From the IMG/VR virus record IMGVR_UViG_3300021141_000001: 64,000 nt of DNA; one strand, given 5' to 3'. A program made the position numbers and the translations under genes. The notes below the pieces were generated by a model, which did no database searches, was not told the DNA's origin, and saw nothing but the letters and a program-made list of their open reading frames with translations. Of this stretch, positions 1,486-42,357 are shown piece after piece. The stretch is from a virus. Positions within the stretch are counted from its first letter, which is position 1; each line of letters starts with the position of its first letter.

Positions 1486-2355
1486 ATGAAAGACGTAAAA
1501 GGATTTTGTAAATTGATGGATATAAGTGTGCCGGATTACGCACATTTTGATTATTATATTAATCAATTCTCAAAATTAGAAAGATGGAAAAACATCAAAG
1601 ACTTAATTAAACTTTATGAAGAAGCCGAAGAAAAGTATGGTGAACTTTATGAATATAGATTAAAGAAGTCAAATGAAATTATTGATTACTTGAAGAAAAC
1701 AAGAGCTTACAATGAACTTCAAGATGATAATTTATTGCCTGACCTACCGACAACTAAGAATTTTGAATATTCAGAAGATAAGAAATATATCTCAATTGAT
1801 ATTAATAAAGCCAATTGGGTAGTTCTTAAAAATTATGACCCTGAATTTGCGCCTGAACTTGGTGATTCTTATGATGATTTTATTGCTAAGTTTGATGTTC
1901 CTGAAATATTCAATCACTCAAAACAATTGAGACAATATATTTTTGGTAATATCAATCCAAAAAGACAAGGTAAAGCTCAAAGAGTTATAACTGAAAGATT
2001 ATTAAATAGATATAAGCATCTAAATTTAGAAATTGCTTGTGTTAAAAACGATGAGGTTATTTATTCTTTTGATAGTTTTGACCAAATTAACGAAATACTG
2101 ACTACTGTTGATAAAAGTTTATTTAAAACTAAACTTTTCACTGTAAAAAGAATAGAAGATTTCCGAATCAATACATATTTATCTGAGACTGGTAAAGGGC
2201 TATACAAAGAAATGGTAGGGTGTAATGGTAATCTATTTTTCTTATATCTAAAGAAATATGTTTTGAATGAAACACTTGACATAAGAGATTTATATTTCAA
2301 AATGGATGGTAATCTTGCTATCTGGAATGTTGAAGGATTAAAAGTAAGTTTATAA
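1486..2355 (+). CDS. Hypothetical protein, possible minimal polymerase-palm-like fold
   Basis: 289 aa; ISIDINKAN and KNDEVIY resemble palm motifs A and C (weak). Confidence 0.45.
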   Translation: MKDVKGFCKLMDISVPDYAHFDYYINQFSKLERWKNIKDLIKLYEEAEEKYGELYEYRLKKSNEIIDYLKKTRAYNELQDDNLLPDLPTTKNFEYSEDKKYISIDINKANWVVLKNYDPEFAPELGDSYDDFIAKFDVPEIFNHSKQLRQYIFGNINPKRQGKAQRVITERLLNRYKHLNLEIACVKNDEVIYSFDSFDQINEILTTVDKSLFKTKLFTVKRIEDFRINTYLSETGKGLYKEMVGCNGNLFFLYLKKYVLNETLDIRDLYFKMDGNLAIWNVEGLKVSL

Positions 2356-2358
2356 TCT

Positions 2359-2625
2359 ATGTCACAGAGCAGTACATCCGTTAACATTTACTATGGAAAA
2401 GACAAAAAATTAATGGAGTCTTTCCCTATTGAAATTGGAAGAAAAATATCGTCAATAGATGATGCTAGATTTTTGATAATAAATCATTTAGATAGTTTTT
2501 ACGTTGATGTTAAATATAAGATTAATGTCTTTTCTACATTTGATGGTGAAACAACTATCAATTTGTTTTTTGAAGAAGATATTTCTTTGAACAGAGAGCT
2601 TTTATTAAGAAAAATATTAGAATAA
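2359..2625 (+). CDS. Hypothetical protein with C-terminal tag
   Basis: Ends NRELLLRKILE; TAATG coupling to the next gene. Confidence 0.6.
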   Translation: MSQSSTSVNIYYGKDKKLMESFPIEIGRKISSIDDARFLIINHLDSFYVDVKYKINVFSTFDGETTINLFFEEDISLNRELLLRKILE

Positions 2626-3245
2626 TGATAGATATATTTGATAAAAAACCCATTGATTTGACAAAAGTAGTTTGTCACTCTGGTGGCGCACCTGGTGCTG
2701 ATACTGTTTGGGAAAACGATGGTGATCCATATGGTGTCCAAACTAGAGCTTACTCTTATAAAACACCTAAGCACATATCACCTAACAAGGTTGAAATTTC
2801 AGATGATGATTACAAAGAAGGTGTAGTGGAAGTTAACAAGGCTAATAAGTGGCTTAATCGTTACGGAATTCATAAGTATATGAATCTCTTGGCTCGCAAC
2901 TGGGCTCAAGTGAAATACTCTGAACAGATTTTTGCTATTGGAACTATTATTAAACCTGGTGATAAAAGCACTAGGGGTTACTACAATAAAGGTAAGTATG
3001 ATATGGTTGATGGTGGTACAGGATATGCTGTGATGATGGGTATTAATAACAATAGAGAAGTTTTTGTTTTTGATCAAATTAGAGATAAGTGGTTTAGGTG
3101 GTCTTACTCAACACTTCAATTTGTTGAAATGAAAGAAGTTCCTACTATTGATGTTCAAAACTTTGCTGGTATTGGAACAAGAGAAATTCAACCAAATGGT
3201 GTAAAAGCCATTAAAGATGTATATGAAAAAACATTTAAAAAATAA
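2625..3245 (+). CDS. SLOG-superfamily (DprA/YspA-like) nucleotide-binding protein
   Basis: HSGGAPGAD, ARN, GGTGYAV motifs. Confidence 0.65.
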   Translation: MIDIFDKKPIDLTKVVCHSGGAPGADTVWENDGDPYGVQTRAYSYKTPKHISPNKVEISDDDYKEGVVEVNKANKWLNRYGIHKYMNLLARNWAQVKYSEQIFAIGTIIKPGDKSTRGYYNKGKYDMVDGGTGYAVMMGINNNREVFVFDQIRDKWFRWSYSTLQFVEMKEVPTIDVQNFAGIGTREIQPNGVKAIKDVYEKTFKK

Positions 3246-3254
3246 AAACTTAAA

Positions 3255-3722
3255 ATGAAAACTATCTTAACAAAAGAAGGAAAAATAAAACTTCAAGAAG
3301 AATTAAATTTCCTATTGACAGTTGAAAAAAATCGAGTGATAAATGAGCTATCAGAAGCTCGTGAAAGTGGTACATTAGAAGAAAATACACAATACTTAAT
3401 TGCTAAAGAAGAGTATGAGAAGGTTCAAAAGAAAATTGAAAAGCTACAATCTTTCTTAGCAAATTCAACTGTTGTTGATGTGGCTGATATTAAAACTGAC
3501 AAAGTTGCCATTTTTACAACAGTAAAAGTTTTAAATACTACTAATAGTAAAGAAATGATATTTAAGATTGTTCCAGAGAATGAAATTGATATCAAAGTAA
3601 GTAAAATATCAACAAGTAGTCCAATTGGTGCTGGTTTACTTGGAAAATCTCTAAACGAGGTTTGTGAGGTTAAAACACCAGCTGGTACATTCAGTTTTAA
3701 AATTTTAGAAATAAGTATATGA
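3255..3722 (+). CDS. greA: Transcription elongation factor GreA
   Basis: LTKEGKIKLQEEL, ARESGTLEENTQY, ISTSSPIGAGLLGK, VKTPAG. Confidence 0.9.
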   Translation: MKTILTKEGKIKLQEELNFLLTVEKNRVINELSEARESGTLEENTQYLIAKEEYEKVQKKIEKLQSFLANSTVVDVADIKTDKVAIFTTVKVLNTTNSKEMIFKIVPENEIDIKVSKISTSSPIGAGLLGKSLNEVCEVKTPAGTFSFKILEISI

Positions 3723-35012: not shown

Positions 35013-35972
35013 ATGATTAAAAGATATTTAGAGTTTATAAAAGAAAGTCAAATTAATGGATTCAATTCACTAGGTGAGTGGGTTGAATCTTTAATATCTG
35101 ATGATTATGTTAGAAACATAGTAGCTCGTTATACAAAAGATTCTGATGCTTCTATTGATTTATCAAATGCTATTAATATCTTAGATGATAATACTAAAGA
35201 TGAAATTAAATATCAAATTGATAATTATTTACAAAATGGTATTGAAGAAAAAGAACCTGAGTTCTTAGTTTCAACTGATTTAGAAGAATTAACTGAATCT
35301 GAGATTACAGTTGCTGGTAAAGGTATATTTATTTCTTTCTTAAAATCTTTAACCAGTTTAGGTCAAAAAGAAGTGGGTCCAAATTGGTCTAAATCTTCAG
35401 ATGACTTTTTATTATACTATTACTATCCTAATTTACAATCAGAACATGTAAAACAAGTATTTTCAAGATTCAAATCTTTAAGTAGATACTTAGACCATGT
35501 TGATTATCAAAAAAATGAAGTTGATTTATACTTTGGTATCAAATGTGATGGTAATTTTGAATATGGTTTACATTATGATGTACCAACACCAATTGGTCAA
35601 TTTAAGTTGAATCAATCTGTTATTAAATGGATTTGTCAAATTGAATCTAAGTCTGCTCATTCATTAAAGAAAGAATTAGTTAATTTAACTTTAGCAGATG
35701 TAATTACATTAGGTAAAATTAAATTAGATATGAAAGAATTCAATCCGGGATATCACGAATCAAAAGATGTTGTGAAAATTCAAGATAAGATTATTTCATT
35801 TGGATATAAAGGTTTAGGTAAATGGGACAACGGTAAATTTGATGAAGGTGAGTTTATGAATATTAAAAATAACTTCACTACTTGGGTAATGACTAAGAGA
35901 TGGGGTGGTAAAGTTTTAATAAGTGTTAAACCAACATCATATTATGTTTACATACATATAAAATTAAAGTAA
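35013..35972 (+). CDS. Hypothetical protein with capsid-targeting-like N-terminus
   Basis: MIKRYLEFIKES; TAATATATA at 35000-35008. Confidence 0.7.
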   Translation: MIKRYLEFIKESQINGFNSLGEWVESLISDDYVRNIVARYTKDSDASIDLSNAINILDDNTKDEIKYQIDNYLQNGIEEKEPEFLVSTDLEELTESEITVAGKGIFISFLKSLTSLGQKEVGPNWSKSSDDFLLYYYYPNLQSEHVKQVFSRFKSLSRYLDHVDYQKNEVDLYFGIKCDGNFEYGLHYDVPTPIGQFKLNQSVIKWICQIESKSAHSLKKELVNLTLADVITLGKIKLDMKEFNPGYHESKDVVKIQDKIISFGYKGLGKWDNGKFDEGEFMNIKNNFTTWVMTKRWGGKVLISVKPTSYYVYIHIKLK

Positions 35973-35974
35973 TC

Positions 35975-36718
35975 ATGAAAATTAAAAACTATAAACTATT
36001 TTTAGAGTCAAATAATTTTGACTTTGATTTTTTAGCAAACATTGGTAAAATGAAACAAGCTATTATTAAAATAGTTCAACTTCATGAGAAAAAGTGTTAT
36101 GGTGATATTAAACTATCATCTTATGAAAGATTTAAAGCTTCATTAAATGATTTAATTGATAGTGCTGTTAAAGGTGAATATACAATTACTGAAGATTACT
36201 TATCTGTAATTAATTTATTTGAAAAAGAAGTTTATGGAAAAGATTTACTTTCTTCTTATGAAGAATCTATTTTTAGTCATTTAGATGATTTGATATCTTG
36301 TTTTAATAGTTTATTAGATAATGAGGAAAAAGACGAAGAAGATATTATGAGATTAGGAAAAGATGCTGACCATATCTTAAATAAGATGGATGAGACTTGG
36401 ATTTATACTTCTGATGAATCTAATGTTAGTATTTCTGATATTGATATAAGTGATATTGATGATGCTATTGCTGGTTTAGACGATAGATTGTCAAAAGAAA
36501 CAGATGACATGTGGACTTCTGAAGAAGAATTTGAAAAGGATATTGAATCATATATTGGAAAGAAAATGGATGATTTTGATTACTCGGATAAACTACAAGC
36601 TTATCAATATATTGAGAACAAAGAATGGGTGAAAAATATACTTGAAGGTGGTTCAGAAAAAGATAAAGACTTTGTTACTAACTTTCTTTCTCAAATGAAA
36701 GATATGTTTGGCATATAA
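35975..36718 (+). CDS. Acidic hypothetical protein with capsid-targeting-like N-terminus
   Basis: MKIKNYKLFLES. Confidence 0.7.
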   Translation: MKIKNYKLFLESNNFDFDFLANIGKMKQAIIKIVQLHEKKCYGDIKLSSYERFKASLNDLIDSAVKGEYTITEDYLSVINLFEKEVYGKDLLSSYEESIFSHLDDLISCFNSLLDNEEKDEEDIMRLGKDADHILNKMDETWIYTSDESNVSISDIDISDIDDAIAGLDDRLSKETDDMWTSEEEFEKDIESYIGKKMDDFDYSDKLQAYQYIENKEWVKNILEGGSEKDKDFVTNFLSQMKDMFGI

Positions 36719-36733
36719 ATTAATATATACATT

Positions 36734-37045
36734 ATGAAATACTTAAAGAAATATAACGAAAATCAAGAACAACAAGATCCTGAGTTTGCTATTGCTAAAA
36801 TTAAGGGAAGATATCCTGAGGATATGGTTCAAGATATGTTAAATGATGAGATTAATCAGTGGAAGCCAGATGAAGAAGATCCAGAATTCTATTCAAGAAC
36901 TGGAAACGGAGAAGCAGAAGATGTTATCATCAATCAAATGATTGGTTGGTTTGATAAAAAGTATTATGCTTTATCTGATGAAAACTTTGAGAAAGTTAAA
37001 CAATTAATACTAAAAGAGTATGAGTTCTTAAACTTTAACTACTAA
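36734..37045 (+). CDS. Small protein with capsid-targeting-like N-terminus
   Basis: MKYLKKYNE; TAATATATA at 36721-36729. Confidence 0.65.
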   Translation: MKYLKKYNENQEQQDPEFAIAKIKGRYPEDMVQDMLNDEINQWKPDEEDPEFYSRTGNGEAEDVIINQMIGWFDKKYYALSDENFEKVKQLILKEYEFLNFNY

Positions 37046-37090
37046 ACAAAAAATGAAAACTTTTCTATAACAAGAAAAGTTTTTTGTTTT

Positions 37091-37423
37091 ATGAAAACAC
37101 CAAATTTATTTCCCGTAGCTATGAAAATTGCTGCTCAAACTATTGGACAAGATTTAGTCAGTGTTCAACCAATGGCTGGACCAGGTGGAATGACTAAAGA
37201 AGAAAGAGAAAGAATTGAAGCCGAGATTAAACAAAAGAATCGTGATGGTAAAATCGATTCATTAATTGAAGGATCAGAATATAAAGAAGAAAAATTAGAA
37301 GAACATCCTGATTATAAACCAGGTAGTGGTTGTCAATTATTTTATATGGATTATACTTACAATTCTCCAACTCACAAAAAAACAAGAAGAAGTAAAAAGA
37401 AAAAGAAAGATGGGAGTATTTAA
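37091..37423 (+). CDS. Small protein: major capsid protein (gp23 Gol-region) fragment interrupted by the tag
   Basis: LFPVAMKIAAQTIGQDLVSVQPMAGPGG ... NRDGKIDSLIEG ... QLFYMDYTY. Confidence 0.7.
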   Translation: MKTPNLFPVAMKIAAQTIGQDLVSVQPMAGPGGMTKEERERIEAEIKQKNRDGKIDSLIEGSEYKEEKLEEHPDYKPGSGCQLFYMDYTYNSPTHKKTRRSKKKKKDGSI

Positions 37424-37595
37424 GAGTCCAGGAGTTTTTGTTAAAGAAGTAGATATATCTATTGTTAGACCAACTTTTTCCAAAAGATATTCAAGAAGAA
37501 TAAAAATAGGTAAAATATTTGATATAGATGTTCCTAATATTATTATAACTTCTACTCCAAAAGGAGGACCCTCAAACTTTCCACAAATCTGGTGA
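37410..37595 (+). CDS. Small protein: tail sheath N-terminal fragment plus tag
   Basis: MGVFKSPGVFVKEVDIS ... SRRIKIGKIFD; likely start is the ATG at 37410. Confidence 0.65.
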   Translation: MGVFKSPGVFVKEVDISIVRPTFSKRYSRRIKIGKIFDIDVPNIIITSTPKGGPSNFPQIW

Positions 37596-37625
37596 TGAAA
37601 ACATGTTAGAGTAATATATACTCTA

Positions 37626-37961
37626 ATGATAAATGTTTATTTGATATGTGCCGAATTTGAAGGAAGAAGATTGTATAAGATTGGTTATACAAGAAGAGAT
37701 GTCTCTAAAAGAATTAAAGAGTTGAAGACTGGTAACGGTTCTGAAATGTATGTTATAGATTCTTTTAAGTCAAAATGGGGAACTAAAATTGAATCACAGT
37801 TACACAGAACATTTAAAAGTAAAAAGATAAATGGTGAGTGGTTTGATTTAACTGATGAAGAAGTAAAATCATTTATGGAAAAATGTAAATCTTCACATGA
37901 TGTGATGGAACTAATTACCACCAACAATACTTACTACTTAGAAACTGGTAAACTATATTAA
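37626..37961 (+). CDS. GIY-YIG family nuclease (T5orf172/MUG113-like)
   Basis: VYLI..YKIGYT..RIKELKTGN, IESQLH, NGEWFDL. Confidence 0.85.
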   Translation: MINVYLICAEFEGRRLYKIGYTRRDVSKRIKELKTGNGSEMYVIDSFKSKWGTKIESQLHRTFKSKKINGEWFDLTDEEVKSFMEKCKSSHDVMELITTNNTYYLETGKLY

Positions 37962-37996
37962 TAAATATAATATAAATAAAAAATAAACTTTCGAAT

Positions 37997-38263
37997 ATGA
38001 GCTCAATGAAAGAAATAGCAATTAGAGATTATGTCTCTAAGATTGATTTTAAAAATGATGATTGGAAACTACCAAAAATCAAAGAAGACATGCGTAAATT
38101 TTTAGGTGAAGAACCTGGAATTGAAGTTGTTTACAAAAAAGATGTAATGGTAAATGAATTTACTGGTGAGTCTAAAGAATTTGTAGATGTTGATAAAATT
38201 CAAATCATTTTTACTGATACAGATGATAGATTTAAAAAATTAGAATTCACTTTAGGTGTTTAA
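37997..38263 (+). CDS. Hypothetical protein
   Basis: 88 aa ORF with an upstream promoter motif. Confidence 0.6.
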   Translation: MSSMKEIAIRDYVSKIDFKNDDWKLPKIKEDMRKFLGEEPGIEVVYKKDVMVNEFTGESKEFVDVDKIQIIFTDTDDRFKKLEFTLGV

Positions 38264-38265
38264 TA

Positions 38266-38625
38266 ATGGATAATGAAATTAAAATAACAGCAGATATAGT
38301 AGACTATCTTGGTAAATACGAAGATGGTGTGATAGTTCTGTTGTCTATTGGATATAAAGAAGAGTACACAGAAGGCACTCTTTATTATTCTGATAAAATG
38401 TTAGCTTTAACAGTTGACGAATCTATAGAAAATGACTTAGGTAGTCCTATAGAACTTTGGTCTGGTTATAAAGACCTTCTTATTTCAATTCTTAAAAGAG
38501 TTGTTCCTTATACTGAGATTATCAATAGATTAGATGATGTCAATTTTACACAATATTTTGGCGATGTTAAAATAGAATCAACAGAAGCTGAAGATATAGA
38601 TGAAGATGATATAACAACTGAGTAA
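38266..38625 (+). CDS. Hypothetical acidic protein
   Basis: 119 aa ORF. Confidence 0.6.
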   Translation: MDNEIKITADIVDYLGKYEDGVIVLLSIGYKEEYTEGTLYYSDKMLALTVDESIENDLGSPIELWSGYKDLLISILKRVVPYTEIINRLDDVNFTQYFGDVKIESTEAEDIDEDDITTE

Positions 38626-38673
38626 ACTAATTTTGATTATTTTGATATAAATAAAAAATAGTCAAAAGTATTA

Positions 38674-40422
38674 ATGCTTATTAGTGAATTAGGAATTAGA
38701 GGATTCAAAAGTTATGGTAATAACGAACAAGTCTTAAAATTAAATACGGAAAAAGGAGAATTGATTCTTCTTGTTGGAAATAACGGAGCAGGTAAATCAT
38801 CTTTGTTAGATTCCTTCGATTACACACTTTATGGTAAAGTTAGAGGTCGTAAAAAGAAATGGGCCACTTTATCCACACTCCCAAACAGAATTAACGGTGA
38901 ACTACTTAATAGAATTAAATTTAATTCTTTAGGTACTGACGTTGAAATAAAACGAGGTATATCACCTGGTGTGTTAGAACTTACAGAAAACGGTGTTGTC
39001 AATGAAAGAGCCGGTAAAGGTAATGTTGATGAAAAGATTGAAAAGTATATCGGTATGGATATTGAAACTTTCAAATCATTTATCTCAATGTCTATTAATG
39101 ATTTCAAAAACTTTATCTCTTTATCAAATGAAGAAAAACAACTTCTTTTAGATAAGTTGTTCAACTTAGAAGTTATCAATATCTTAAATGGTATCTTAAA
39201 AGATATCGCTAAGAATAATAAAGTCAGAGCCGCTTCTTTTGATGGTGAAATTAGAACTTTAGATGACTCAATTTCATCTATTCAAAAGTCTATTGATAAA
39301 GCTATTGAAAGGCAAAAAGAAGAAGCTAGACTAGCTTTAGAAAGAGAGAAAGAAGATATTCAAGCCGAGATTGATAGAATCACAGGTGAGATGAATTCTA
39401 GAAAAGATGATTATAAATCTTTGAAAGAAAAGATGGATAAAATCAAAGAAAAGGATTCAGAATTATCTGATGAGATGGACAAAGAAAAAAGACAACTTAT
39501 CAATTGTCAAAATGATATTAAGAATGTTCAAAGAGAATTAGACTTATATGATTCTGGTAAATGTCCTACTTGTAAAACAGATTTTGATTCGGTTCACTTT
39601 GCTAATTTAAGAACGGCTTTAGAAGAAAAGAAATTAGGTTTTGAAAATATCAAATCTGAAATTGAAGCTAATGTTACTAAGATAAGAGAAAGACAAGTTA
39701 AGTTAAAAGGTTTATCTGAAACAACTACAACAACTTTTAATGATTTAAGTTATCTATTGAAAAACTATAAATCAGAGATTGATAAATTAGTTCAAAAGAA
39801 AGCTTCTCAAACTGTTCCGGTTAATACTACTCCTTCTATTAATATTCAAGAGTTTCAAAATACAATTGAAGAACTTGAAGAAAAGAAAGTAGTTAGTTCT
39901 GATAACATCACAGTTTGTAAAGAGAAAGACCTTTATTATAAAGAGTTGAATCGTATCTTTGGTGAAGATGGTGTTAAGAAGTCTATAATCTCTGGCATTA
40001 TTAAACCAATCAATCACTTTATTGCTGAGAATATTAAAAAGATGAGTTTGCCATTTGAAGTAAGATTAGATGAAACTTTTACAGCTGAGATTAAACAATT
40101 AGGTTCTCAAATTGAACACGATTCTTTATCAACTGGTGAAACTAAAAAAGTTAATATTAGTATCTTAATTGCTTACTTGAAGTTAATTAGAACTAAGCGT
40201 CATATCAATATACTCTTCTTGGATGAGGTCTTCTCTTCTATTGATATCGAAGGTATAGATTCTATTTTGGCTCTCTTAAAATCGTTCGCAAACGATTATA
40301 ACATCAATATCTTTGTTGTCCATCATGCTATTTTGAACCAAGAGATGTTTGATAGAATACTGAAGATTAATAAAGAAGTGTTTTCTTCGATAGAAGAGGT
40401 TGATCTGAGTTATGGAAGTTGA
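38674..40422 (+). CDS. SbcC/Rad50/T4 gp46-like recombination ATPase
   Basis: GFKSYGN, GNNGAGKS, CPTC zinc hook in a coiled coil, LSTGE signature, LFLDEVF, VVHH. Confidence 0.95.
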   Translation: MLISELGIRGFKSYGNNEQVLKLNTEKGELILLVGNNGAGKSSLLDSFDYTLYGKVRGRKKKWATLSTLPNRINGELLNRIKFNSLGTDVEIKRGISPGVLELTENGVVNERAGKGNVDEKIEKYIGMDIETFKSFISMSINDFKNFISLSNEEKQLLLDKLFNLEVINILNGILKDIAKNNKVRAASFDGEIRTLDDSISSIQKSIDKAIERQKEEARLALEREKEDIQAEIDRITGEMNSRKDDYKSLKEKMDKIKEKDSELSDEMDKEKRQLINCQNDIKNVQRELDLYDSGKCPTCKTDFDSVHFANLRTALEEKKLGFENIKSEIEANVTKIRERQVKLKGLSETTTTTFNDLSYLLKNYKSEIDKLVQKKASQTVPVNTTPSINIQEFQNTIEELEEKKVVSSDNITVCKEKDLYYKELNRIFGEDGVKKSIISGIIKPINHFIAENIKKMSLPFEVRLDETFTAEIKQLGSQIEHDSLSTGETKKVNISILIAYLKLIRTKRHINILFLDEVFSSIDIEGIDSILALLKSFANDYNINIFVVHHAILNQEMFDRILKINKEVFSSIEEVDLSYGS

Positions 40423-40745: not shown

Positions 40746-42284
40746 TTAACAATCGTAACAATCTACTTGTCCTCGACCATAACAATTACCACATTCTACT
40801 GTTTCATCTCCATCACATTCACGACATGTTCTTTTACCATCTCCATCACAATCTGAACAATTCACTTTACCAGATCCATCACAATCTGAACATTCTTCCT
40901 CTTCGCCATCAGAGCCTTCAACATTACCAGATCCATCACAATTTGAACAATCTTCTTTACCATCACCATCACAACTATTACACTCAATAGTTCCTTCACC
41001 ATCACAATTACCACAAGAAACTGTACCTTCACCGTCACAGTCATAACATTCAGTTCTACCAGAACCATTACAAGTATCACAAGGTCTAACATAGTCACCA
41101 CCTGTATCTTCTAAGAAGTAACAACCACCAGTATCCTCATTTGAAATAGTTTTTGTTCTTGAGTTAAAATATTTAAGTGTATCTAAATAAGGAAAATTAT
41201 CCATACTAGCATCAGTTAAATTAACAGTTAAATCTAAATTAACTCTACTTCCATCTGGAGCTATAGCTTGACCACTATCTGAACTATTATTATGTTCTTT
41301 ATAGTACCAACCATTTTCTTTAGCATAATCTCTGAATAGTTCAACATCAGAAGGATTTACTGTATAGATTCTATCTAAATATTCTTTACCATCTTTTAAT
41401 TTCCAAAGTAATGCTCTACCGATAATTTTTTCAGTATCATCCATTGATTTGTAAATAACTAAACCAACTTCTGGATTAGCAGTATAAACTTCTAACCAAC
41501 TATCTGGAGCACCAGCCATACAAGACGAACCTAAAGTACCATTTCTTTCAAAGTAGTTTTCATTATGATACCAATGAGCAATATCGGAACCTCTAGCAAC
41601 TTCAATATAAGAGAATTTATCATTCATCTTATCAATAGTAGCTTTATATAAATTCACAAATTGTTCAAAATCTTTATCAGTAAATTCAGCACCAGCCGCT
41701 TTTAAAAGCGCTCTCATTGCTCTACCTACTTTAATCTCTTGTCTACTTGATGACCAAACTTTTTTAAGTTTTTCATCAACAGATCTTAATTTCTCAACAT
41801 TATAAACGCCTTGACCAGCATCATTTCCAGATAAATCTTTAAATTTAACCCAAGCATAAGATTTACCACTTGTTTCAGATGTTACTTTAGCAACAACTTC
41901 ACCTAAATCTCTTGAATTAGGTTTATAAGGTTCAGAACCTTCTTCAAATGTATAACCTAGTTTTTCAAATAAGCCATTATTAGACTCTTTGTGTTTTAAC
42001 CAACCTCCACCAGAACCTGTAAATCTAACCACTTCTTTAGTATCACCTAAAATCTCTTGTGCTTTTCTATCAGGAGTAAAAGAAATTGTATCATTTTTAG
42101 AAAATTCTATATCAAGATAATTAGCTTGAACAGTTAAGTCATTATTTTCAACACCTAAAATGGCTTTAGCCATTGGATGGTCAATTTTAGCCATTGCCTT
42201 TCTGAAGTTATCAGAGAAAACGACATTTGATTCTAGTATAAACTCTAGATTTTCTTTTATAAAGTCTGAATATTTTTTAATCAT
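40746..42284 (-). CDS. SCM/RALLW/DRIY-motif protein with capsid-targeting-like N-terminus and tandem CxxCxGxG zinc fingers
   Basis: MIKKYSDFIKE; GTLGSSCM, GRALLW, LDRIY, FPYLDT; about 9 DnaJ-type zinc-finger repeats. Confidence 0.75.
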   Translation of the reverse strand: MIKKYSDFIKENLEFILESNVVFSDNFRKAMAKIDHPMAKAILGVENNDLTVQANYLDIEFSKNDTISFTPDRKAQEILGDTKEVVRFTGSGGGWLKHKESNNGLFEKLGYTFEEGSEPYKPNSRDLGEVVAKVTSETSGKSYAWVKFKDLSGNDAGQGVYNVEKLRSVDEKLKKVWSSSRQEIKVGRAMRALLKAAGAEFTDKDFEQFVNLYKATIDKMNDKFSYIEVARGSDIAHWYHNENYFERNGTLGSSCMAGAPDSWLEVYTANPEVGLVIYKSMDDTEKIIGRALLWKLKDGKEYLDRIYTVNPSDVELFRDYAKENGWYYKEHNNSSDSGQAIAPDGSRVNLDLTVNLTDASMDNFPYLDTLKYFNSRTKTISNEDTGGCYFLEDTGGDYVRPCDTCNGSGRTECYDCDGEGTVSCGNCDGEGTIECNSCDGDGKEDCSNCDGSGNVEGSDGEEEECSDCDGSGKVNCSDCDGDGKRTCRECDGDETVECGNCYGRGQVDCYDC

Positions 42285-42357
42285 TTTCAACTATGTTATG
42301 TTTTATAGATATAAGTATATATTAAATATATAATGTACAAAAATTAATTTATTACAT

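Follow-up and report, generated by a model that had tools for sequence, protein, structure and literature searches.

A tagged 110-residue protein of huge phages built from N-terminal pieces of a Gp23-type major capsid protein: a putative assembly-stage mimic

The window analyzed here is the whole 64,000-nucleotide stretch of the IMG/VR virus record IMGVR_UViG_3300021141_000001, given as one strand. Its G+C content is 29%, and its relatives among deposited phages are only uncultured huge phages of 460-735 kb (LR745206, LR756500, LR756501, LR756502, LR756503, and LR756504). Within the window lies a small gene, referred to below as the mini-gene, whose product (the mini-protein) consists of two pieces of the N-terminus of a major capsid protein (MCP) with a tag-bearing cassette between them (Table 1). 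An identical copy of the mini-gene is present on a short metagenome contig (L094). Near-identical DNA was found in 18 lake and freshwater metagenome runs from many studies, in which 87-97% of the words sampled from positions 36000-39000 of the window were recovered.

Table 1. Features at the mini-gene locus. Positions refer to the window and residue numbers (aa) to the encoded protein.
Feature	Position	Strand	Description
AT-rich hairpin	37055..37084	+	12-bp stem and U-run, a few bases 5' of the start codon; RNA fold -11.6 kcal/mol, z -3.98, 0/200 shuffles as good
Mini-gene	37091..37423	+	ORF, 110 aa plus stop
MCP piece 1 (aa 5-31)	37103..37183	+	N-arm helix and V-Q-P-M turn; positional equivalent of T4 gp23 93-120 ('Gol' region)
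Inserted cassette (aa 32-76)	37184..37318	+	45 aa; charged helix, tag, acidic stretch with H-P-D-Y end
Tag RDGKIDSLI (aa 51-59)	37241..37267	+	Match to the tag pattern (regular expression)
MCP piece 2 (aa 77-98)	37319..37384	+	K-P-G turn repeated, then first beta strand (LFYMDYTY)
Basic tail (aa 95-106)	37373..37408	+	Varies among lineages: basic, acidic or absent (alignments)
Partner mini-gene	37410..37595	+	61 aa; overlaps the stop region of the mini-gene by 14 nt; sheath-N-terminus-like start, internal tag RRIKIGKIF
MUG113/T5orf172 (GIY-YIG-like) gene	37626..37961	+	Pfam PF13455, E 3e-21; conserved downstream neighbor (synteny)

The mini-protein was compared with the MCPs of relatives, in place of the window phage's own. 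By BLASTP, aa 5-31 matched the MCP of LR756502 with 21/27 identities (E 2e-11), and in an HMM built from 58 distinct MCP N-termini of related huge phages the same residues corresponded to positions 95-121 (i-E 1e-13). Residues 77-98 corresponded to positions 119-140 of this HMM, a weak match (i-E 0.023); among the other family members tested, nine had the strand piece in the corresponding place with i-E values of 0.0025-0.06, and four gave chance-level scores. A few profile positions are common to the helix and strand pieces, and the protein thus amounts to two MCP pieces that overlap, with the 45-residue cassette in between. The sequence-only reading had described an ORF with a Gp23-type segment, a tag inside it and a strand that resumes after an insert of about 50 residues. 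This architecture was borne out and the insert does carry the tag, although its length is 45 and not about 50. The cassette is missing in every MCP aligned. The family alignment shows almost no variation at L83, Y85, D87, and Y90 of the strand region, the last numbered by alignment column and counted directly as Y88.

Across the family, the MCP HMM matches three collinear pieces: the propeptide start (12-50), the N-arm helix and turn (95-121), and the turn and first strand (117-141). The first of these is absent from the window protein. Relatives of 157 aa align from their own residue 5 to MCP residues 7-115 (E 3e-13). The relationship to phage T4 is more distant. Residues 93-122 of T4 gp23 (record L013), which we take to be about the extent of the Gol region, align with residues 5-33 of the mini-protein, and 7/30 are identical; in the strand that follows the Gol region there are 2/8 identities. 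The proposed line-up with the T4 Gol segment thus held for the positions, which are homologous, while the identity is low and the Pfam Gp23 profile (PF07068) is matched below its cut-off (E 3e-4, 20.7 bits against a gathering threshold of 24.4). This match covers aa 3-42, corresponding to profile positions 5-44 of 376. PHROG 138 (major head protein) was matched at E 5e-3, and when a profile of the small family was run against the PDB, T4 gp23 was the top match (E 0.13), collinear with gp23 residues 1-123. Among 120 relatives listed, 3 have a precomputed PF07068 match. The ESM Atlas gave weak leads (score 0.77) to small-protein clusters in which 26-95% of the members have a Gp23 match, and a phmmer search of the MCP against the PDB gave no match. 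Similarity to the Gp23 profile is therefore present, in the N-terminal part.

A complete HK97 fold, with its P and A domains, was not found in the mini-protein: coverage ends at profile position 44, and the predicted structure consists of helices only. Everything that builds this fold has been lost, in agreement with the earlier statement that the protein cannot be a capsid subunit. The AlphaFold (AF2) models, all of single chains, show two helices and no globular fold for the 110-aa form (pTM 0.33) and four helices for the 157-aa form (pTM 0.26). In the short form, one helix (residues 7-18) lies in MCP piece 1; the other (residues 36-60) is the element of highest confidence (pLDDT ~85) and has the tag at its end. 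The predicted absence of a globular fold would fit a protein that acts by binding.

The tag follows the pattern R-x-x-[KR]-[IL]-x-x-[ILV]-[LIFV], which has 9 matches in the 79 called genes of the window, compared with 0.67 expected from shuffled proteins. Matches at most 12 aa from a C-terminus number 6, against 0.08 expected, and the tag is common to many other small proteins of the phage. In the mini-protein it is internal, 51 aa from the C-terminus; in the homologue of a 675-kb IMG/VR genome (L016) it lies 8 aa from the end. The codons of the tag differ between carriers, which identifies it as a motif at the protein level and rules out a DNA repeat. In the window protein the tag is followed by L-I-E-G, in which several relatives have Asp in place of Glu; the T4-type prohead protease site is [LI]-x-E. 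The tag was sought at the C-terminus of the putative scaffold/protease and of the portal in relatives and was not found there. Pfam and PHROG searches of the other tagged proteins and of the neighboring genes gave no functional clue. An assignment as a polymerase-type clamp-binding tail was considered as well and is unsupported, because the PolB C-termini of related huge phages end in a hydrophobic-acidic tail. In these phages (L185-L190) the family-B DNA polymerase is split into two distant genes, and it is the C-terminal half that has the T4/RB69-like hydrophobic-acidic tail.

The mini-gene is the upstream member of a pair. Its partner begins with a sequence resembling the N-terminus of a sheath-like protein of LR756502 with 1284 aa (9/19 identities, E 1e-4), and the stretch after the partner's tag looks by eye like the continuation of that N-terminus. 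The length of the partner is 50-73 aa (58-73 in most) in the window and most relatives, where it usually overlaps the stop region of the mini-gene. The pair is kept in L096-98, L101-103, L014, and L002. In one protein (P0121), the only hit of a search for longer fused forms, the capsid and sheath-like mini-genes are fused and the tag cassette is found at another point of the MCP segment (HMM position 109). The L016 genome has a different arrangement, with five tagged mini-genes in a row (2187-3352). In this array the tag is followed by F-P-[DE]-x-K at the ends, except for one which ends in KNI, and the MCP turn/strand piece and the N-arm helix piece are separate mini-genes with a tag each.

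The hairpin upstream of the mini-gene was missed by a consensus terminator scan because it has few G-C pairs; it may terminate transcription of the preceding gene or mask the start of translation. No promoter of either the T4-late-like or the local consensus type was recognized upstream of the mini-gene, and the motif AATATATAC, which precedes many genes of the window, does not precede this one. As a separate observation, the motif AATATATA(C) is found within ~15 nt of the start codons of 20 genes, where 1 would be expected (for example at 35013, 36734, 37626, and, on the minus strand, 40746). It is absent before the mini-gene and is likely a phage promoter or initiation element. The product of the gene at 40746-42290 (-) has 514 aa, and its C-terminal third is taken up by a long series of C-x-x-C-x-G-x-G repeats that resemble zinc fingers of the DnaJ type.

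The RNA libraries contained one contig of ~92% identity that spans 37176-37360. Other RNA contigs (37102-37158) continue into MCP sequence, and runs X22 and X20 match the mini-gene over 39 nt (37102-37140). Since these contigs run into MCP sequence they represent MCP transcripts of related phages, and such transcripts are therefore plentiful in RNA libraries from lakes; the depth of a metatranscriptome contig in X22 reaches 147. For the mini-gene itself, the contigs show presence in RNA libraries only, and stretches that they do not cover are uninformative.

Further searches revealed that the mini-gene belongs to a large family. A word-index search gave 420 clusters at 90% identity, with chief length classes of ~109-110 aa and ~156-157 aa, and an exhaustive profile search gave 664 clusters at 50% identity (E <= 0.001), 257 of these with E <= 1e-10. 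A unique recent truncation, which the sequence-only reading had allowed for, is not what was found. The best 150 of the 664 clusters are mostly 76-188 aa long; three have 236-326 aa, and two of these read as MCP fragments. Members down to ~37% identity retain an intact frame and the same order of modules: a propeptide start (in most), the N-arm helix and turn, the charged helix with the tag, the acidic stretch to H-P-D-Y, the strand, and a variable tail. Across >100 clusters the core has 80-94% identity. By sequence comparison, most relatives carry the MCP propeptide start, and the window clade has lost it by in-frame deletion: the short form retains the first five residues of the long form and continues with the N-arm helix, corresponding to a deletion of ~47 codons, and in a 121-aa form the deletion is smaller. 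An 84-aa metagenome protein (P0178) has an in-frame deletion of the tag helix alone, which makes it a natural variant but may be an assembly artefact. In LR745206 and LR756502 (L008-L012) and the IMG/VR genomes L177, L179, and L182, further tiny ORFs of 67-113 aa match Gp23 profile positions 135-197 and 302-356 with weak E-values.

Purifying selection acts on the helix, cassette and strand, where pN/pS is 0.2-0.5 (0.20-0.29 in the cassette). For the window clade, pS is 0.31, pN 0.094, and pN/pS 0.30. The tail is least constrained, with pN/pS ~0.9 among diverse members. In the helix region the mini-gene and the MCP gene have 65-76% nucleotide identity, and identical residues are encoded by identical codons in 5/14 and 10/18 cases; a nucleotide-level comparison of MCP with MCP gave 64/66. 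These values indicate an old paralogue instead of a recent copy and rule out recent gene conversion with the MCP gene. Judging from these alignments, the mini-protein goes back to an old duplication of the N-terminal ~130 residues of a Gp23-type MCP. The mini-gene is genuine and widespread, and as a capsid mimic it is apparently undescribed; literature searches turned up no account of genes of this kind.

The position of the mini-gene relative to the head genes differs between genomes. The head module of relatives is T4-like, with a portal (PF07230) and a weak Peptidase_S77 match in a 699-aa protein before the MCP. In L104 the MCP gene and the mini-gene share a strand, the latter following at a distance of 95 nt. 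In L015 and L032 (1731-2834), a 367-aa zinc-finger-repeat, endonuclease-like gene, absent in L104, lies between the two. This gene looks like a free-standing homing endonuclease, and its insertion recalls the T4 order gene 23, segD, gene 24. In LR745206 and LR756502, by comparison, the complete MCP gene is ~90 kb away from the mini-gene; there, as in the window, the mini-gene is found amid genes without assigned function, adjoining a gp46-like nuclease gene. With endonuclease-like genes next to it (MUG113 in the window, the 367-aa gene in L015 and L032) and an analogous gene order in T4, the mini-gene could be seen as a neutral remnant of a partial gene duplication or of homing-endonuclease traffic that has no function of its own. 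This explanation is disfavored and appears very improbable, given the selection measured in the window clade at a pS of 0.31, the intact frame in hundreds of clusters down to the most distant members, and a nucleotide identity to the cognate MCP that does not allow for recent copying.

The activities of the parent segment in T4 offer several candidate functions. The Gol peptide alone is sufficient for Lit activation. The Gol region comprises 29 residues of gp23 and is more conserved than any other part of this protein; it binds domains II and III of EF-Tu and enables EF-Tu cleavage by Lit, and its binding to EF-Tu was proposed as a general property of T4-like MCPs (PMC3014915). The gp23 N-terminus was also described as strongly directing proteins fused to it to GroEL (PMC3012670, citing Snyder and Tarkowski 2005). 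In the prohead the N-terminal region faces the interior, where contact with the scaffold core was proposed, and Met98 of gp23 joins the portal whisker site; after expansion the same region forms the inter-capsomer N-arm (PMC9546572).

From the first two of these activities, it could be hypothesized that the MCP-like part binds folding or translation factors of the nascent MCP, either a chaperonin or EF-Tu, and titrates them or recruits them through the tag. The extent of the family, which spans exactly gp23 residues 1-123 minus the middle, would suit such a mimic of MCP biogenesis, as would the chaperonin targeting and the proposed generality of EF-Tu binding. Set against this is the low identity to the T4 Gol region, and biogenesis factors are regarded as an unlikely target.

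A second hypothesis concerns defense. The sequence-only reading had linked the segment to Gol, EF-Tu and Lit and proposed an immune decoy. In such a role the fragment would bind and neutralize a host capsid sensor, perhaps handing it to a reader of the tag. Capsid proteins are known triggers of defense, as in CapRel (PMC9712102) and in Lit with Gol (PMC3014915), and the retained segment is the most conserved of the family. The Gol region is, however, the most conserved part of Gp23-family proteins in general (PMC3014915), and any N-terminal paralogue would contain it. Moreover, translation of the gol region in T4 makes Lit active on EF-Tu (PMC3014915), so that a faithful copy would trigger the sensor and not shield against it. 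The mini-proteins also retain a propeptide helix and a beta strand which are outside Gol, and the uniformity of the core across clusters shows no sign of arms-race diversification. Together with the 7/30 identity, these observations leave the proposed Gol/EF-Tu/Lit connection unsupported, and a decoy is considered rather improbable. Most relatives keep the propeptide start, which acts inside the prohead in T4; this points instead to assembly or biogenesis partners.

The mini-protein might also be directed at other phages. As a dominant-negative arm fragment it would poison the capsid assembly (and the sheath assembly) of co-infecting relatives, while the MCP of the producer tolerates it. Competition of a small protein for a docking site on a capsid protein has a precedent in CpmB of SaPI elements. 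Many related huge phages are found in the same lakes, and the turn of the mini-protein is V-Q-P-M, as in T4, whereas it is V-K-P-S/T in the MCPs of the lineage; the mini-protein is therefore not an exact copy of the cognate arm. The helix part, however, is almost identical to the MCP of the producer lineage, for which self-poisoning would be expected, and interference between phages is judged quite improbable.

The explanation preferred here, with chances put at somewhat below even, is that the mini-protein is a putative assembly-stage mimic of the N-terminal docking elements of the MCP, coupled by the tag to a putative reader. What is retained, as far as the alignments tell, is the N-arm helix and the first beta strand, with the first propeptide helix in most relatives, and a conserved helix with the lineage-wide tag sits between the two overlapping MCP pieces. 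In the infected cell, the mini-protein would occupy a site which normally receives the MCP N-terminus. Candidate sites are the scaffold/protease core or the portal in the prohead, or the arm-acceptor surface of a neighboring MCP subunit. Such occupancy could cap, time or modulate assembly of the lattice, and the mini-protein might enter the prohead as well. Through the tag helix it would be linked to a putative reader in common with many other small proteins, and the adjacent sheath-derived mini-protein would do likewise for the N-terminal arm of the sheath.

Several lines of evidence led to the assembly-stage interpretation. The mini-proteins are homologous and collinear to MCP N-termini, have no predicted globular fold, and are under selection in helix, cassette and strand; the clusters are numerous and mostly of small proteins, and near-identical DNA of this part of the window recurs in lake and freshwater runs. 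The mini-gene of L104 is close to the MCP gene, the head module of relatives is T4-like, and the T4 N-terminal region has whisker and N-arm roles and a proposed scaffold contact in the prohead (PMC9546572). The apparently sheath-derived partner is of the same design, as illustrated by the fused form P0121, and in L016 the tagged pieces are separate. Against the assembly-stage interpretation stand the ~90 kb which separate the mini-gene from the head module in LR745206 and LR756502, the fact that no late-promoter motif was recognized upstream, and the turn residues, in which the mini-protein departs from the cognate arm. The window clade, moreover, has deleted the propeptide-like part and yet keeps the gene, so that any contact with the scaffold through that helix is dispensable there.

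On a broader scale, the mini-gene may be one element of a wider putative huge-phage system, a proposal that is possible but doubtful at present. Such a system would comprise dozens of mini-proteins which display docking or core elements of essential proteins (here the capsid N-arm and next door the sheath N-arm) together with a common helix tag read by one machine. Their role would be to cap or chaperone assembly in trans, or to serve as baits handing their binders, such as host sensors or subunits of rival phages, to the tag reader. If the mimic interpretation is right, the assembly of very large capsids and sheaths would be regulated or protected by trans-acting copies of subunit arms, a principle not described for tailed phages. 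The family is well suited to experiments because it is large, is simple and modular in design, and offers natural variants in each of which one module is missing, be it the propeptide part, the tag helix or the strand. It would also be a clean starting point from which to seek the putative tag reader, the main question for this class of genes.

The closest known systems include the T4 gp23/Gp23 family itself (PF07068; PDB 6uzc, 7vs5). Over the N-terminal 123 residues, the mini-proteins share with it, in collinear order, the N-arm helix, the first strand and the V-Q-P-M turn between them, and in the long forms also the propeptide start. They differ from gp23 in retaining only about a quarter of the N-terminus, without the HK97 fold, in the deleted middle of the propeptide region, and in the added 45-aa tag cassette. 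The T4 Gol peptide occupies homologous MCP positions, with 7/30 identities; the likeness is explained by descent from the lineage's own MCP. The capsid-targeting sequence (CTS) of T4 loads internal proteins into the scaffold core (PMC3012670). As in the CTS, and in scaffold or CpmB-type C-terminal helices, a short helix on unrelated small proteins could address one partner; the CTS is N-terminal, whereas the huge-phage tag is usually C-terminal, and the putative scaffold/protease does not end in the tag. The clamp-binding C-terminal tails of the T4/RB69 polymerases are likewise short terminal peptides used as a handle, but the PolB of huge phages ends in its hydrophobic-acidic tail and not in the R-x-x-K tag. 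Lastly, microProteins of plants and animals are small dominant-negative paralogues that keep only the interaction element of a larger protein. The mini-protein is similar to these in that it arose from a partial duplication and has docking elements only, with no functional fold. It differs in that it derives from a phage structural protein and bears an additional tag which it shares with other proteins.
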